Shown here: positions 13,520-53,900 of the stretch, one piece after another
Position numbering within the stretch: position 1 is the stretch's first letter
Layout: the number at the start of each line of letters is the position of its first letter
Assembly: GCF_022045235.1 (NCBI RefSeq)
Contig: NW_027266266.1
Span: forward strand, 20,274,001-20,338,000
DNA: 64,000 bases
Source: Haliotis cracherodii
Lineage: Eukaryota
Reading direction: 5' to 3'
Made by a program: the position numbers and the translations under genes
Notes under the pieces: generated by a model
Told to the model about the DNA's origin: nothing
Seen by the model: the letters and a program-made list of their open reading frames with translations, nothing else
Databases searched by the model: none

Positions 13520-14328
13520 CTTACTTACTTACTTACTTTGGAGATTTAACGTGCGCTTTCCGACTGATGCGTATTTCGCACACGGGCCCGGCCAGGCCAT
13601 TTAATGTGTTTCCGAAAGGGGCGAGGGTGGTCTGTGCAACCCAAGAGGGGGCTTTAGGGGTTGCTTATATAGAATTTGGGAATTTTGATATTTGGAATAG
13701 ATGTCGATGGGGTTGGGGAGGAGAACTAAGGGAGCTGGGTATGGTGGATGATTGTTTGTTTATTTGATTTTGATTTGGTAGATTATTATGGTTTTAGATG
13801 CGTTTTATTAGTTCCGTTTTGATTAAGAATACGCCAAAGGCCTTGAAGTTTTCTAGTTTATTTTGTGGGTTTAGTATTGCTTCTAGAGTGAGAGCCTTGT
13901 TTAGATTGAGGGTGGTTTGTAATGCGGTTCGATGTGTTAGGTAGTGTGTGCAGTGGATGAGTGCGTGTTCTGGGGTTTCTGGTTGTTTGCAGTGTGGGCA
14001 GTTACCTGTAGTGTGTTTTTTAAATTTCTTTAGGTGGTTATTTAGGTTGGTGTGTCCTGTTTGGAGTTTAGTGATTACTCTGTCGATTTTTTTTGATGGA
14101 TGGAGAATTTTTGGTTTGGTTAGTGGTTTGCTGAGCACTCTTTTGATTTGGCTATTTGAGTTTAGATATAGGTTATGCCATTTTTTTGTGATTTTTTGTT
14201 TGTTCACACTTTTAATTTCTGATTTTGAGATGGGTAAGTTTAAGCTTATTTCTGGGATTTTGAGGGATAGTTTAGCTGCTTTATCGGCGTTTTCATTACC
14301 GTATATTCCTACGTGGGCGGGTATCCAC
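13520..14328 (-). mobile_element. 5'-truncated RNase H-bearing LINE (I/Nimb group), young insertion
   Basis: ORF 13794-14330: WIPAHVGIYGNENADKAAK (RNase H C-terminus) and CPHC...ETPEHALIHC zinc knuckle. The 3' tail is (TAAG)n. TSD AATAATGA at 13512-13519 and 14329-14336; empty sites at about 54298 and 63500. Confidence 0.93.
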
Positions 14329-15284
14329 AATAATGAACATGGTACAAAATATATATATAAGGTGGAGGATTAACAGTAACAAACAATTGCATACATGAAA
14401 GAGATAAACATGAGTAAGTTCAATAATACACATGATAAGGAAGCCAATTAAACAGGATAAGTATACATAGTAGGGGTCGCTATTGCTTGATGAGTTCACA
14501 GTAGGCGGATAGGATGAAATTGCCTTGATCTCTGTTGATTGATGGTTGTGGCGGCGAATGTGGACTGCTTCTCTTTGTTTGCTTTTTGTGAAGTCCTGGA
14601 GTTGTTGGAGAGGATTTGGGCGGTTCATGTTGTGATTAGGGCAGTTGCTGATATGTTCCGAATGGCTGATTTACTGTCGGATTTGATGGTTGAAGTTTTG
14701 TGCTCTTTGATTCTGGTGTTGATGGGGCGGGATATTTCACCTACATAGGATTGCCCCATATCATCAGCCGCCTCCTTCAACCCCAATATTGACCCCGACT
14801 TCGCCAGATCAACCCCCCTCAATTCTCTAAGAAGGGACAACGACAGAAACACAACTAAACGCCAAGAACCTAAAGGTGTAGTTTATAAAATTGAGTGTAA
14901 CTGGACAATTCTATATAAGGAAAACATCCCGCCCTATAACCGTTTGCATTCAACTAGCACCCCCACATTTCCAAAAAGAATACACGAAACACAGATTCAA
15001 TAATTGTAGCCTTTTCCTGTTCACAAATCCTAAAGTGGACACTCATATATTAAGTCGACTATGAATTAATAAGTCAGAATATCAAATAAACGTAACACCA
15101 CATTAAATTAGCGGTATTAACTTATACTTTGAAACTGAGAGTTATCTCCCTTCCGTTAGTGCCGCTCGTTGCCAAGCTACCGATATCAGCAAAACGACGC
15201 CATTTTATGTTGCCGCATCTACTGTCTCTTTGTTCTCAATCTATAACCTGCCTTGGATTTTGAGCATCGCTTGAGTTTTTAAGC

Positions 15285-18492: not shown

Positions 18493-19323
18493 ATTTGCGC
18501 TCCGTCCAAAGCTTAAAGAGAATGGTTACGGAATCGCAAATGACTTGACTATAGCTCAACGGAAGACGCTACAGGAGCTACGACGTAACAATAAGCGCGG
18601 ATATTACAAGAAAGGGGTTCTTGTGGTTGAACATATGCAGACTACAGATAGACGTCATGAGTCTCCACCAGGCCACCCAGACACAGACCAGGCGACTTCA
18701 AAGACTCCGCCCAGGGCGGGTGTGCCAGCTAGTGTCCGAAACCCACAGAATGAAGATGATTTTCGCAGATAGGGGTGTGGCCAAGGCCGTAACTGTAACT
18801 CTAATACCAGACTAACCACTTCTTTTGTATTCTGGAACATTGCTGGACTACAATCGAAGCTCCACGATACTGACTTTATCTCATTCATACACCAATTTGA
18901 TGTCATCAGTTTATGTGAAACATGGTCATCCCATAGTGATAGTCAACTATGTTTCCCCGGATATATTACTCACTCCATCCCAGCTGAACAAATATCATTT
19001 TTTGGGCGACTGTCAGGTGGTCTGGTTGTTTTGATAAAACAACACCTAGTCCAATATGTGAAAGGTTGTGTGACCGGTCCCAACGGAATTTTCATCGTAC
19101 TGGACAAGCGCTTATTTTGTTTGGGAAAGGACACCATTGTAGCTTGTGTATATGTCCATCCTGAGGGCTCAACCTGGTATAAATCGGCTACAACGAAGTG
19201 TGGTATAAGTTTATTCTTTGAATCACTACTTGACGTGTTACAAAGATTTGGAGACTGTAGTATTTTGATTGGTGGCGACCTTAACTCTAGAACTGGCACA
19301 GATCCCGACGGAATTGAACTCAT
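18493..19323 (+). mobile_element. Internal fragment of a second APE-LINE family (ORF1 end plus ORF2 endonuclease N-half), uninterrupted
   Basis: LKENGYGIANDLTIAQRKTLQEL...DFRR*GCGQG...FVFWNIAGL...FDVISLCETW...GRLSGGLVVLIK...CVYVHP...IGGDLNSRTG, all in one frame. Unique to this unit; no TSD or tail. Confidence 0.9.
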
Positions 19324-19521
19324 TTATTATGCCTGAGACATTCCAGAAGAGAAAAGTTAATGAAGCTATTATTACTGTCGCTTCTCTCCCTTGATGGGTT
19401 CTCTTGATGAGCAGTAAAATCAGCGTATAGGCCCTGTCCACACCCTTAGCTCTGTCCCCCTACTGCTGGCCTGTGTGACCTCGAGCGCGTATCCGTCTCT
19501 CATCCTTACGTTCCCATCCAT

Positions 19522-19566
<45 letters not shown>

Positions 19567-20370
19567 CCCCAAATGTGCTTTCCTGTGCAGCTTCATCTTT
19601 TCTAGTATCTCTCTCTCCTCTCCGCTCCTCTCCTCTCCTCCCAATTTCGAGGACTAATAAAGTAAAGATTTCATTCGGTAAATATAAACCTGTTTAATTC
19701 ATAGACAAAACAGGCTCTTACAGGATCACATGACCAATTTTGTCTCACAAGCCACAATCTGTCACTGTTTCATTGAAGGTGAGGGGGGCACGGGTGGCCC
19801 AGTCGTCTAAGGCGCCGCGATTCGCTGTGCAGAGTTGCGTCCCTTGGGCACGCCAGAAACCTATGATTGTGGGTTCGAATCCTGGTTCGCCCCGATTATG
19901 TTTCTAGGTTTGTCAGCACCATACCCGGGCTTTTGGGTTTCACCGAAGTGGTTAACGTCTGAGACCTGCATCACTTCGGGCTTTCCTCCCACATTAAGCT
20001 GACACGCCGTGATATAAATGGAATACTGTTAAAAGCGGCGTTAAACCCAACTCACTCACTCATTGAAGGGGATGGAAGATGGCTGGATCTTGAACAGAAG
20101 TTCAACAAAAACAACCGAGTAGTAGTTTTAAGCTCAACAAAGTCATCTTCTCCAAAATCAGACTTCGTTCCTGTTCTGGCTTTATAGTCTCCGCCACAAT
20201 TAACAATAGCATCTCTTAATTCTGATAAAATGTCCAACAAACTGTTTTGAAATATAGGGGTGCCACTTTTACAATCAACAGATAAAATGTAATAGGAGCT
20301 AGATCCCTCAGGATGGATATATACACATGCATATTATACGTCATATTGACGGCCGAGCTAGGAATTATCA

Positions 20371-23166: not shown

Positions 23167-26062
23167 TTATATGGACTAAAAAAGTATATATTTTGAGCTC
23201 AGCAATTTATTTGTTTGAACAAACCTGAGGACAATTATTACCCCCACCCCAAATTCAAACATTGTGTTTAAAAGAGGGATGGTAAGAACATGAATAGGGA
23301 TGTATCAGGAAAGTTTTCAAAGAGAAGTCCTAACTCAGTAGACTATGGGCCATAAGACCTGGACATGATTTTCATCACCTGTCTCCCGGGTCTTGAAACA
23401 AAAATGTATTGTTTCTGCTCTTGATGCTGATTTTGTGGAACATCACAGGCCATGTTATTATGGTTGCTTGGTAACAGCATGCTATGAAGTACTCAAACGA
23501 TTTCTTACCTAAACATTGAATTGAATAAGGTGAAACAAGTCAATAATATACTGGTATACTATATATCTGCATAACTAATTACAGTTGACAGGATAATTAT
23601 GATAATAATTTGTGTACTGTACCATCCAAATACAATTCTGAAATATATAGGAAATATTTCTTCCTTGCTAATTATTTCCTAGCTTTCATAACTCATAAAT
23701 AAATTGATACAATCTTTGTGATGGTCATGACAATAATATGGTTGACACTAACTTGAGACTGACTTATTTAAGATTTTGGCAGTGAGGAAGAAACACAAAC
23801 TAAACCAGCCATCCTTCCTGAGAACCATGATGTCCCGTGTCATCTGAGTGGTCAAAAGAGTCTTCACCTCCAGCAACAATGTTGAAAGCTTTCCTTGGAA
23901 CAAGTTCCAGGATATTTTGTTGGATTCATTAACTTTTGTCTTGTTAATTATTTCCATATGGTTTCAGGTGATATAAATAAATGTTTTTGTTGTTCAAACT
24001 GTTGTTTGCTGTTATATTTTATCAATGTAAGTGCCTCCTATAATTATCAAAAGCCTGAATAGCATCCTAAAACCATGCTAAAGTATTCTGGTTCTTGTCT
24101 GGCAGTAAGTCTAGGTTAGATCTAATAACCAAATAGGTTTACACATGAGGTATAGATTAGCTCATCTTTTTTATATTGTATGCACAATCATTGACGTTTT
24201 TTTCTAAAATAACATCAAGAATGAATAGTTTATGCTTCGAAAAACTTGAAGCTTCTGCCATAGCTATCACAATTGACAATCGTCCCATTTAACATTTTAT
24301 TGAAAAAAGTCCAACTATTCTTTTGCCATACTTAGTACTGTTGATTTTTTGTTTCGTTTGTTCTTTAACGCCGCACTCACCAATATTCCAGCTATATGAC
24401 GTAAGGTATATGACGTATGTAAATAATCGTGTCTGGACAAGACAATCCAGTGTTGACATCATGAGCAACGATCAACGCTTTTGGCATAAAAAGACATGCA
24501 TCAACCATGAAAGCTTGTTTGTATGTTTGTTGTTTAACGCCGCACTCAGCAATATTCCAGCTATATGACGGCCGTCTGCAAATAATCGAGTCCACAGGAC
24601 TAGTGCCAATTTCTAACGCTGGCTATATCAGACAAGTAGGCAATATCAACTCCTACTAAAATGAACTGAAAGGCAAAAGAAAGTAGCCACCAATTTCGAG
24701 GACTAATAAAGTAAAGATTTCATTCGGTAAATATAAACCTGTTTAATTCATAGACAAAACAGGCTCTTACAGGATCACATGACCAATTTTGTGTCACAAG
24801 CCACAATCTGTGACTGTTTCATTGAAGGTGAGGGGGGCACGGGTGGCCAGTTATAGTAGATATAACTGGAATACTGTTAAAAGCGGCCCCACTCACTCAC
24901 TCTGCCTGTCTTAGACAGTCTATCAGCATCTTTAATATAAAGGGTAAAGTCTGTGAAAGTGACCTTCACATCCTCTACATTATCCAACCAAGTTTCAGTT
25001 ACACCAATTATATCAAATTTGTTCACATATTTGACAAACTTATTATCTGTTAACTCATATATTATGCCTGAGACATTCCAGAAGAGAAAGTTAATGAAGC
25101 TATTATTACTGTCGCTTCTCTCCCTTGATGGGTTCTCTTGATGAGCAGTAAAATCAGCGTATAGGCCCTGGCCACACCCTTAGCTCTGTCCCCCTACTGC
25201 TGGCCTGTGTGACCTCGAGCGCGTATCCCGTCTCTCATCCTTACGTTCCCATCCATCAAGCTCTCTCTCTCTCTCTCGCCCCCAAATGTGCTTTCCTGTG
25301 CAGCTTCATCTTTTCTAGTATCTCTCTCTCCTCTCCTCTCCTCCCAATTTCGAGGACTAATAAAGTAAAGATTTCATTCGGTAAATATAAACCTGTTTAA
25401 TTCATAGACAAAACAGGCTCTTACAGGATCACATGACCAATTTTGTGTCATAAGCCACAATCTGTCACTGTTTCATTGAAGGTGAGGGGGCACGGGTGGC
25501 CCAGTCGTCTAAGGCGCCGCGATTCGCTGAGCAGAGTTGCGTCCCTTGGGCACGCCAGAAACCTATGATTGTGGGTTCGAATCCCGGTTCGCCCTGATTA
25601 TGTTTCTAGGTTTGTCAGCACCATACCCGTGCTTTTGGGTTTCACCGAAGTGGTTAACGTCTGAGACCTGCATCACTTTGGGCTTTCCTCCCACATTAAG
25701 CTGACACGCCGTGATATAAATGGAATACTGTTAAAAGCGGCGTTAAACCCAACTCACTCACTCATTGAAGGGGATGAAAGATGGCTGGATCTTGAACAGA
25801 AGTTCAACAAAAACAACCGAGTAGTAGTTTTAAGCTCAACAATGTCATCTTCTCCAAAATCAGACTTCGTTCCTGTTCTGGCTCCGCCACAATTAACAAT
25901 AGCATCTCTTAATTCTGATAAAATGTCCAACAAACTGTTTGGAAATATAGGGGTGCCACTTTTACAATCAACAGATAAAATGTAATAGGAGCTAGATCCC
26001 TCAGGATGGATATATACACATGCATATTATACGTCAGATTGACGGCCGAGCTAGGAATTATC

Positions 26063-28871: not shown

Positions 28872-31418
28872 TTATATGGACTAAAAAAGTATATATTTTG
28901 AGCTCAGCAATTTATTTGTTTGAACAAACCTGAGGACAATTATTACCCCCACCCGAAATTCAAACATTGTGTTTAAAAGAGGGATGGTAAGAACATGAAT
29001 AGGGATGTATCAGGAAAGTTTTCAAAGAGAAGTCCTGACTCAGTAGACTATGGGCCATAAGACCTGGACATGATTTTCATCACCTGTCTCCCGGGTCTTG
29101 AAACAAAAATGTATTGTTTCCGCTCTTGATGCTGATTTTGTGGAACATCACAGGCCATGTTATTATGGTTGCTTGGTAACAGCATGCTATGAAGTTCTCA
29201 AACGATTTCTTACCTAAACATTGAATTGAATAAGGTGAAACAAGTCAATTATATACTGGTATACTATATATCTGCATAACTAATTACAGTTTACAGGATA
29301 ATTATGATAATAATTTGTGTACTGTACCATCCAAATACAATTCTGAAATATATAGGAAATATTTCTTCCTTGCTAATTATTTCCTAGCTTTCATAACTCA
29401 TAAATAAATTGATACAATCTTTGTGATGGTCATGACAATAATATGGTTGACACTAACTTGAGACTGACTTATTTAAGATTTTGGCAGTGAGGAAGAAACA
29501 CAAACTAAACCAGCCATCCTTCCTGAGAACCATGATGTCCTGTGTCATCTGAGTGGTCAAAAGAGTCTTCACCTCCAGCAACAATGTTGAAAGCTTTCCT
29601 TGGAACAAGTTCCAGGATATTTTGTTGGATTCATTAACTTTTCGTCATGTAAATTATTTCCATATGGTTTCAGGTGATATAAATAAATGTTTTTGTTGTT
29701 CAAACTGTTGTTTGCTGTTATATTTTATCAATGTAAGTGCCTCCTATAATTATCAAAAGCGTGAATAGCATCCTAAAACCATGCTAAAGAATTCTGGTTC
29801 TTGTCTGGCAGTAAGTCTGGGTTAGATCTAATAACCAAATAGGTTTACACATGAGGTATAGATTAGCTCATCTTTTTTATATTGTATGCACAATCATTGA
29901 CGTTTTTTTCTGAAATAACATCAAGAATGAATTCCGCCACTGTGGACAGGGACGATTTTGAAATGACTAAAGTGCTTGACAGTTAACAAACCTAGTCTGA
30001 CTGTAGCTATTGAATCACAGCTCTCTATTAAAAGAATGCGACCAGACCATCATGACACTTCTAATGGATGTCTACATTAAAGAAGGTTCGTCGCCATTTC
30101 AAATGAACCCTGTAGGAAACTAGGAATTCCACAGAGTAGAAAAGGTCCTTGGTATCCATTGCTGGCCACAAGAGCCAAAAACAAGATTCTTGCTCATGCT
30201 TTCAGTCACTGATTTGTGTGATAATGACTTGATATCATATACAAGCCGGCGTGATACAGCTTACTTCCGTGTGGTCACAGATATCAATGTATATTTTCAG
30301 TTTATGAGAGCAAATAAAATGAGACAATTGCAACACTGTTCAACCTCAATAGTTTATGCTTCGAAAAACTTGAAGCTTCTGCCATAGCTATCACAATTGA
30401 CAATTGTCCCATTTAACATTTTATTGAAAAAAGTCCAACTATTCTTTTGCCATACTTAGTACTGTTGATTTTTTGTTTCGTTTGTTCTTTAACGCCGCAC
30501 TCACCAATATTCCAGCTATATGACGTAAGGTATATGACGTATGTAAATAATCGTGTCTGGACAAGACAATCCAGTGTTGACATCATGAGCAACGATCAAC
30601 GCTTTTGGCATAAAAAGACATGCATCAACCAAGTCAGCAATCCTGACCAACCGATCCTCGTTAGTTGCCTCTTGAAAGCTTGTTTGTTTGTTTGTTGTTT
30701 AACGCCGCACTCAGCAATATTCCAGCTATATGACGGCCGTCTGCAAATAATCGAGTCCACAGGACTAGTGCCAATTTTTAACGCTGGGTATATCAGACAA
30801 GTAGGCAATATCAACTCCTACTAAAATGAACTGAAAGGCAAAAGAAAGTAGCCACCAATTTCGAGGACTAATAAAGTAAAGATTTCATTCGGTAAATATA
30901 AACCTGTTTAATTCATAGACAAAACAGGCTCTTACAGGATCACATGACCAATTTTGTGTCACAAGCCACAATCTGTGACTGTTTCATTGAAGGTGAGGGG
31001 GGCACGGGTGGCCAGTTATAGTAGATATAACTGGAATACTGTTAAAAGCGGCCCCACTCACTCACTCTGCCTGTCTTAGACAGTCTATCAGCATCTTTAA
31101 TATAAAGGGTAAAGTCTGTGAAAGTAACCTTCACATCCTCTACATTATCCAACCAAGTTTCGGTTACACCAATTATATCAAATTTGTTCACATATTTGAC
31201 AAACTCATTATCTGTTAACTCATATATTATGCCTGAGACATTCCAGAAGAGAAAGTTAATGAAGCTATTATTACTGTCGCTTCTCTCCCTTGATGGGTTC
31301 TCTTGAGCAGTAAAATCAGCGTATAGGCCCTGGCCACACCCTTAGCTCTGTCCCCCTACTGCTGGCCTGTGTGACCTCGAGCGCGTATCCCGTCTCTCAT
31401 CCTTACGTTCCCATCCAT

Positions 31419-52711: not shown

Positions 52712-53900
52712 GGTAAACGTCTGAGACCTGCATCACTTCGGGCTTTCCTCCCAAATTAAGCTGACACGCCATGATATAACTGGAATACTGTTAAAAGCGG
52801 CGTTAAACCCCACTCACTCACTCTGCCTGTCTTAGACAGTCTATCAGCATCTTTAATATAAAGGGTAAAGTCTGTGAAAGTGACCTTCATATCCTCTACA
52901 TTATCCAACCATATTATGCCTGAGACATTCCAGAAGAGAAAGTTAATGAAGCTATTATTACTGTCGCTTCTCTCCCTTGATGGGTTCTCTTGATGAGCAG
53001 TAAAATCAGCGTATAGGCCCTGGCCACACCCTTAGCTCTGTCCCCCTACTGCTGGCCTGTGTGACCTCGAGCGCGTATCCCGTCTCTCATCCTGTTGTCT
53101 TTCCTCTCTCTCATCCTCTGTGCCTCAAGATATGCTTTCCTGTTCAGCTTGGGGGCACGGGTGGCCCAGTCGTCTAAGGCGCCGCGATTCGTTGTGCAGA
53201 GTTGCGTCCCTTGGACACACCAGAAACCTATGATTGTGGGTTTGAATCCCGGTTCACCCCGATTATGTTTCTAGGTTTGTCAGCACCATACCCTGTGCTC
53301 GTGTGTTTCACCGAAGTGGTAAACGTCTTAGACCTGCATCACTTCGGGCTTTCCTCCCACATTAAGCTGACACGCCGTGATATAACTGGAATACTGTTAA
53401 AAGCGGCGTTAAACCCAACTAACTTACTCACTCACTCCTGTGCAGCTTCATCTTTTCTAGTATCTCTCCTCTCTTCGGCTTCCCTCACTAATTTCCCTTC
53501 TCTGTAGTAGAACCGTGTGTCTGGTTCGTCTGTTCCGCATTTTAATAATTCCTGTCTCTGATTTAAAGTCAAGTCATTAGAGATGCCATATCCTTTACCT
53601 TTAAGGACGACACAGCTTGCATTTTGTCGTCCCAGTGCAGCATCTTCACGAGAAGGTTTATTAGGCTTCTTCGTCGGCATACGATGTGCACGTTTCTACA
53701 TCTCTGGAATTGAGCGGGGGAATTTCTTCTCTATCTTCAGTACTTTCAGAACTTTCTCCTTACACACCGTATATGATTCATGTTGTAATTCAGGCACTCT
53801 ATATAATATTACATTATTTTTCCTGTTTCTGCGGTCTTGGATTCATAGTGGATGTATTATAAATTCACAAGGTTTTGAGGGAATTGATCGATAAGCATAA
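52230..53900 (-). mobile_element. LINE family 1 remnant including ORF1 C-terminus
   Basis: ORF 53432-53680 (LKGKGYGISNDLTLNQRQELL...YREGKLV) is homologous to ORF1 of the family 2 fragment; APE fragment at 52354-52542. Confidence 0.8.
53151..53435 (+). mobile_element. SINE A in LINE ORF1
   Basis: TSD tcctgt(t/g)cagctt on both sides. Confidence 0.9.

Follow-up and report, generated by a model that had tools for sequence, protein, structure and literature searches.

A stop codon shared in frame between ORF1 and ORF2 of a LINE lineage from Haliotis cracherodii and other organisms is a probable site of UAG readthrough

How ribosomes translate the second open reading frame (ORF2) from the two-gene RNA of long interspersed nuclear elements (LINEs) is a long-open question that has been answered for L1 and SART1 only. 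In these elements the RNA is bicistronic and ORF2 depends on events at the ORF1 stop, by UAAUG coupling in SART1 and reinitiation in L1, and a separate ORF2p is produced from an AUG of its own, either overlapping or 63 nt downstream (PMC5972666, PMC3708506). In the gag-pol arrangement of gammaretroviruses (murine leukemia virus, MuLV), a structural gene and a polymerase gene lie in one frame and are separated by a single UAG with G at +4 and purine-rich bases behind it, and a low polymerase share is expected (PMC3159437, PMC8310308). In the literature, UAG-G is given as the context of Type III readthrough sites (PMC3159437). In certain limpet and tick elements without long terminal repeats (non-LTR elements), the ORF1p coiled coil is preceded by a 2A-like peptide (Odon et al. 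2013; PMC13405545); 2A in LINEs is covered by PMC3708506, PMC13405545 and 10.64898/2026.09.24.754024, and TART and HeT-A by PMC5009743. The present analysis concerns 64,000 nucleotides of Haliotis cracherodii DNA (the window; contig NW_027266266.1, positions 20,274,001 to 20,338,000 of the forward strand) in which pieces of two diverged LINE families, here families 1 and 2, carry ORF1 and ORF2 in a single frame around one stop codon, a probable readthrough site in family 2.

The junctions share the gag-pol features listed above, and a low polymerase share would again be expected; they differ in that the LINEs are non-LTR elements, no 3′ fold was found and no protease domain was detected. As with SART1 and L1, the RNA is bicistronic and ORF2 would depend on events at the ORF1 stop, but an AUG ahead of the endonuclease is absent in 36 of 41 intact families and the frame and stop identity are fixed. 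The 2A-like peptide is a further likeness to the limpet and tick elements, although an in-frame stop junction is not described in the accessible text on those elements, whereas here a predicted 2A and a candidate readthrough site occur together. Readthrough between LINE ORF1 and ORF2 was not found in the full-text literature searched, a scope outside which Repbase or Dfam notes and subscription journals may mention the stop. What is proposed is thus a known kind of recoding, in an element class for which no report of it was found, minus the structure usual at Type III sites.

The elements may belong to the RTEX (RTE-X) clade, a label suggested by sequence features. They have a C-terminal Cys/His motif and a short-repeat 3′ tail, features of possible diagnostic value for RTEX, together with two ORFs, an apurinic/apyrimidinic endonuclease (APE) followed by a reverse transcriptase (RT), and RTE-like outgroups nearby in the tree. 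The ORF1 differs in being of L1 type, whereas some RTEX elements have an esterase (PMC3905857). RTEX is mentioned in PMC12477816, PMC5753468 and PMC3905857; the label was not found by a term search of the PMC11203168 supplement.

The family-2 fragment in the window comprises the following features:
18495..19318, plus strand: internal fragment of LINE family 2 (824 bp; ORF1 tail, junction and first 182 ORF2 codons).
18495..18769, plus strand: ORF1 3′ end, encoding the C-terminal domain of an L1-type ORF1p together with its low-complexity tail (from translation and ORF1 profile).
18770..18772, plus strand: ORF1 stop TAG in the same frame as ORF2, the likely readthrough site.
18773..18788, plus strand: conserved post-stop sequence GGG TGT GGC CAA GGC C, +4 to +19 (from conservation in 18 families and a synonymous control).
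18773..18832, plus strand: open spacer of 20 codons in which ATG and nine near-cognate starts are all absent.
18833..19318, plus strand: ORF2 APE endonuclease, beginning with the conserved W-N and truncated by the end of the fragment (Pfam PF03372; alignment with exonuclease III and L1 endonuclease).

The fragment corresponds to positions -275 to +549 from the stop in an alignment to the full-length copy L017, and near-identical copies are present on other contigs. At 18770 the translation reads DFRR, stop, GCGQG, and the frame is open through 20 codons to the Trp-Asn pair (W-N) at 18833, from which the endonuclease matches Pfam Exo_endo_phos (E=4e-8). The preliminary description of this DNA, which had reported a TAG and a motif at 18770-18788 leading in the same frame and without ATG into an APE domain, was therefore accurate for family 2. 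TAG occupies the junction in all nine distinct family-2 stretches.

Family 2 is a recently active element. The RT is at least 98% identical among 15 copies, a single 3′ end is common to nine of nine copies whose 5′ ends differ, and 7-9 nt target-site-like duplications flank four of the nine at both ends, so the endonuclease has worked. ORF1 has 359 codons from its own ATG, and its profile matches structures of the nucleic-acid-binding L1 ORF1p (human L1 ORF1p; E=2e-8). In five of the nine copies fetched whole, ORF2 is open for 1157 codons from the stop and includes APE and RT; both the N-terminal APE (PF03372) and the RT (PF00078) were matched in copy L019. The elements are APE-type non-LTR (LINE) retrotransposons. 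The W-N, whose Asn has a catalytic role, aligns with residues 13-14 of the L1 endonuclease and with the first strand of exonuclease III; the SDH motif falls at the end of the L1 endonuclease in the alignment. A sense codon at the stop position or an AUG ahead of the endonuclease, two observations earlier named as refuting the interpretation, was found in no intact family-2 copy: the first Met is residue 293, C-terminal to SDH, the last endonuclease motif. An element of recent mobility thus lacks any AUG from which its endonuclease could be made.

The motif pattern has nine matches in the window (six exact, three with one mismatch; chance expectation 0.00), and a 17-nt pattern occurs 86 times in the 1.18-Gb genome compared with once for the reversed control. 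Junctions were also collected without reference to the motif. The genome was searched with endonuclease proteins excluding the motif, and 90 loci (two fetched twice) among 150 matches were examined in the first search; they formed 19 clusters, 17 with the stop and motif in frame. An RT profile identified 29 host-like LINE loci in public prokaryote assemblies and an endonuclease profile one metagenome contig. Three endonucleases from these contigs served as further queries, with 150 matches and 30 returned loci each, after which 40 more regions were fetched, selected for long open frames. In total, 279 loci, representing 189 distinct stretches, contained the start of an endonuclease; they gave 64 clusters at 80% nucleotide identity. 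A word-indexed protein search added 14 distant relatives. The viral collection yielded no match in an endonuclease scan and six distant loci in an RT scan, of which L205 was examined and used as an outgroup; the single match of a motif scan there lay inside an unrelated virus-like ORF and was taken as chance.

An in-frame ORF1-stop-ORF2 junction was found in 53 of 63 clusters (64 less one outgroup). In 41 of these, 32 from the own genome and nine from other organisms, at least 100 open ORF1 codons precede the stop, and in 12 ORF1 is broken. Two further clusters are single broken copies with a sense codon at the stop position (TAC, CAG). Since frame was used to define the class of 41 families, the result for frame is the 53 of 63; neither the stop identity nor the +4 base nor the Met content depends on that definition. 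The stop is TAG in 39 and TGA in two of the 41, and TAG in 48 of all 53 in-frame junctions, whereas 22 intact ORF2 ends are TAA in 18 cases and TAG and TGA in two each; +4 is G at 36 of 41 junctions and at one of 22 ORF2 ends (Fisher p ~1e-11 for the bias, inflated since the families are kin). The stop position in 174 distinct stretches is TAG in 130, TAA in 19, TGA in six and one of four single others, with 15 unreadable and TGG never found. Spacers have 20 different lengths, all whole codons, from 5 to 43. ATG, CTG, GTG, TTG and ACG are all missing from the spacer in 19 of the 41 families, and all nine near-cognates in five, including family 2. Only TAG-G is kept in a second lineage (support 0.999), whose RT is 35-40% identical to that of family 2 and which includes families with 5-7-codon spacers. 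The RT tree (FastTree) has weak deep nodes, and its outgroups are unnamed; it shows breadth and not the order of events. The data demonstrate that the junction is real, lineage-wide and under selection. On a readthrough reading, gene callers start these ORF2 proteins too late: of 150 database relatives, 66 have their first residue behind the catalytic W-N, some possibly through cut contigs.

The sequence behind the stop is conserved at the nucleotide level. No nucleotide stretch matches better between families 1 and 2 than the motif (22 nt, 86%), and their endonucleases are 29% identical, in keeping with the earlier claim that it is shared by otherwise diverged families. Across 18 motif families, +5, +6, +8, +10 and +18 are invariant while the encoded residues vary (G/R, G/D, G/A/S/T). 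In the third-position check that had been suggested, the wobble bases are fixed or nearly so (+6 G in 18 of 18, +12 C in 15, +18 C in 18), whereas the commonest third base at 14 conserved four-fold endonuclease columns reaches just 31-65%. GGG and GGC are rare Gly codons, at 14% each. Thus, the motif is kept as RNA or DNA and not as a peptide or by recent kinship. The expectation that it would recur in further families was borne out, with 18 families carrying it, but the 19-nt motif is not lineage-wide. The in-frame stop, the missing AUG and the conservation at nucleotide level extend to many more families and to other organisms. Among 37 long-spacer families the bases at +10 to +13 are G in 31, G in 33, C in 30 and C in 30. 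As judged from these alignments, the full motif (NGG UGY GRC CRR GSC) marks the subclade of the window families, and the lineage-wide core is TAG-G.

The junctions, read as sequence, are best explained by programmed UAG readthrough that yields an ORF1p-ORF2p fusion, which we consider probable. Most ribosomes would stop at the end of ORF1 and release ORF1p, and a small share would decode UAG with a near-cognate tRNA and go on into the endonuclease and RT. The signal would be the post-stop bases, not a stable fold, with +4 G acting across the lineage and NGG UGY GRC CRR GSC in the subclade of the window. Protease domains were not detected, so self-cleavage of the fusion is not expected: still linked to ORF1p, the enzyme could be taken into ORF1p trimers on its own RNA in the way that Gag-Pol joins Gag particles. 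In the window's subclade a predicted 2A-like peptide may first remove an 82-residue leader, giving a 277-aa ORF1p and a 1435-aa fusion, which would measure 1517 aa without skipping. The family-2 ORF1 sequence LLLLSGDIEENPGP conforms to the 2A/StopGo pattern (G/S)D(V/I)ExNPGP, the peptide ending at residue 82/83, and NPGP is invariant across seven aligned ORF1s. Of the 29 families whose ORF1 is long, 13 have the 2A-like motif, none of them in the short-spacer lineage; such a motif is by itself not sufficient for an active 2A (PMC3708506). A wider proposal is made tentatively: that a deep LINE lineage, extending from invertebrates to at least one GC-rich soil-crust eukaryote, expresses its RT in gammaretrovirus-like manner, as an uncleaved UAG-readthrough fusion with a short unstructured signal and, in one branch, StopGo.

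If readthrough is correct, ORF2p would be born fused to ORF1p, a simple way for cis-preference and a set stoichiometry to arise, and the elements would offer a strong parallel to retroviral Gag-Pol with a candidate readthrough signal lacking RNA structure. They would be the first readthrough-dependent non-LTR group and define a new class of structure-free readthrough signal. The lineage has a fixed junction that is easy to test and copies that are young and intact, and it supplies some forty naturally occurring variants of the signal.

Several observations weigh against readthrough, among them the stop codon of family 1. The junctions of that family in the window are:
1329..1347, minus strand: family 1 junction (TAA and motif), decayed, with the W of W-N changed to C.
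8336..8354, minus strand: family 1 junction (TAA), tandem duplicate.
19430..19448, minus strand: family 1 junction (TAA), with a frameshift ahead of the endonuclease.
25164..25182, minus strand: family 1 junction (TAA), tandem duplicate.
31326..31344, minus strand: family 1 junction (TAA), spacer shorter by one codon, frame intact.
40091..40109, minus strand: family 1 junction (TAA), with the ORF1 tail recognisable upstream.
45603..45621, minus strand: family 1 junction (TAA at 45619-45621).
53016..53034, minus strand: family 1 junction (TAA), tandem duplicate.

All eight minus-strand motif matches belong to family 1 and read stop, GCGQG and, after a 33-codon spacer (32 in one copy), FLF(W/C)NVSG. 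The in-frame TAA followed by the motif and endonuclease described earlier was recovered overall, including at 45619-45621, but 1329-1347 reads FLFCN and 19430-19448 is frameshifted. The eight copies are not independent, as they sit in a tandem amplification of 6-8 kb units. TAA is nevertheless present in 17 of 21 distinct family-1 stretches, among them five dispersed copies on four other contigs; the exceptions are single copies with TAG, TAC, GAG and CAG. UAA is seldom read through (PMC8310308), which counts against readthrough in family 1, although every family-1 copy examined is decayed. Elsewhere in the survey, seven clusters of unclear junction type are counted on the same side, as is the related family L321, which starts ORF2 at its own ATG after an ORF1 that ends 281 nt upstream in another frame. 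A Met precedes W-N in five of the 41 families (at codon 7, at codon 8 and, in three, two residues before W). Moreover, the sequence before W-N exceeds 30 residues in 26 of 150 database relatives, and 25 of these begin with Met. The Met-started relatives long enough for the tree mostly group together (proteins only), and this nested group may have left the system.

The adverse evidence extends to RNA structure and trans-acting factors. Type III sites usually have a 3′ structure, whereas none was found behind the stop of the LINE junctions by modelling that excluded pseudoknots and distant pairing. Mean folding z scores against shuffles were +0.37 (+4..+63), +0.44 and +0.16, and none of 19 was below -2 at +4..+63; codon shuffles, a weak null in short windows, gave 0.09 and 0.17 compared with 0.07 for the control. 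The GGC-CARG-GCC stem-loop proposed earlier as a signal did not hold up: the 3-bp hairpin is possible in 21 of 37 long-spacer families (25 with a shifted register), reaches only -2.1 to -3.4 kcal/mol, consists nearly always of G-C or G-U pairs with no two-sided change, and folds like shuffles. An amber-suppressor tRNA was not matched by one narrow pattern search, which does not show absence. The earlier interpretation, that the clade makes ORF2 by programmed readthrough or non-AUG reinitiation, is thus partly supported. A host code in which TAG is a sense codon is rejected, as no internal stop occurs in any of the 22 intact ORF2s, each at least 1130 codons long.

The second of those routes, AUG-independent termination-reinitiation or release-and-carry-on, is the main rival, if an unlikely one. 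ORF1p would be released, and the same ribosome, placed by the motif, would begin a separate ORF2p at the stop or just past it. Because a leaky stop is not required, the TAA and TGA families agree with this rival, and the frame is kept too. L1 reportedly tolerates loss of its ORF2 AUG. Furthermore, termination-reinitiation is the route reported for SART1 and L1 (PMC5972666), and a separate ORF2p is made by other LINEs (PMC3708506). However, reinitiation does not predict the bias to UAG at junctions over ORF2 ends (39 of 41 compared with two of 22), and it must operate in the five families that have no near-cognate start codon at all. A 5-codon spacer would force the start onto the first post-stop codon, which is not constant (GGG, GAC, GTT, GTC, ATA). 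Complementarity to host 18S rRNA is no more than chance, the longest match being 7 nt with shuffles mostly at 6-8.

Splicing is improbable. Here TAG/G would be a 3′ splice acceptor that joins an AUG-bearing ORF1 exon to ORF2, TAG being the sole stop that is also an acceptor, which would give one cause for the TAG, the G at +4 and the lack of an AUG; at the MuLV junction, too, splicing was long the competing explanation (PMC8310308). The upstream sequence is, however, purine-rich without a pyrimidine tract (0.39 compared with a background of 0.41; 0.6 is reached in three of 41 families), a competing AG lies at most 14 nt upstream in 30 of the 41, and TGA is the stop in three families. In L335, the only fused genomic copy inspected, a deletion spans the stop, and its end is not at TAG/G. 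In five of seven runs a contig bridges the stop without a joint, which is weak evidence as the RNA status is guessed; no contig across the stop was found in runs X4 and X12.

Slightly less probable still is that the extended motif serves as a DNA element or as a conserved peptide linker (GCGQG) and plays no part in decoding, with ORF2 made otherwise. The motif is G/C-rich and unstructured, resembling a KLF/Sp-type GC box, and Cys and Gly recur behind the stop in the motif subclade. Nevertheless, it is fixed directly behind an in-frame stop, its wobble bases are fixed while amino acids vary, and neither role supplies an ORF2 start codon. Adenosine-to-inosine editing of UAG, a favoured editing triplet, or UGA to a Trp codon in some transcripts fits both TAG and TGA families but is very improbable, as edited RNA should be copied back as TGG, which is found in none of 159 readable stretches, the stop is not unusually paired (0.58 compared with 0.53), and no A>G change is seen at the stop in bridging contigs, which drop rare variants and whose RNA status is guessed.

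Further observations concern the elements and their surroundings. The ORF1 leader in L019 (3094-3342), which lies outside the window fragment, has a conserved W-R-x-R-I-G and a hydrophobic stretch followed by the 2A-like peptide. The TGA families L308, L215 and L230 retain GGC C at +10 to +13. Joins of ORF1 to the endonuclease that are free of a stop have Gln at the stop position in P0097 (a protein) and L340, Tyr in L249 and a deletion in L335; the genomic joins L340, L249 and L335 are single copies that are broken elsewhere. L176-L204 are eukaryotic LINE contigs in GTDB bacterial and archaeal assemblies (11 in one symbiont assembly) and are presumably host DNA. One of them, L182, from a cyanobacterial assembly (55% GC, RT 39% identical to family 2), has TAG GGG TGT GG at the junction (1092-1103).

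Positions 1-59700 of the window are mostly a tandem amplification whose 6-8 kb units are 90-97% identical and contain decayed LINE pieces and short repeats, and family-1 junction matches extend past both window ends on the same contig. A 191-codon frame at 13794-14369 on the minus strand has a weak RNase H match (E=0.0013) and is a 3′ piece of a different LINE. A 16-nt word at 19833-19848 is common to the 5′ end of full-length family 2 (L017) and to a short repeat, 280 bp long, of which the window has many copies.
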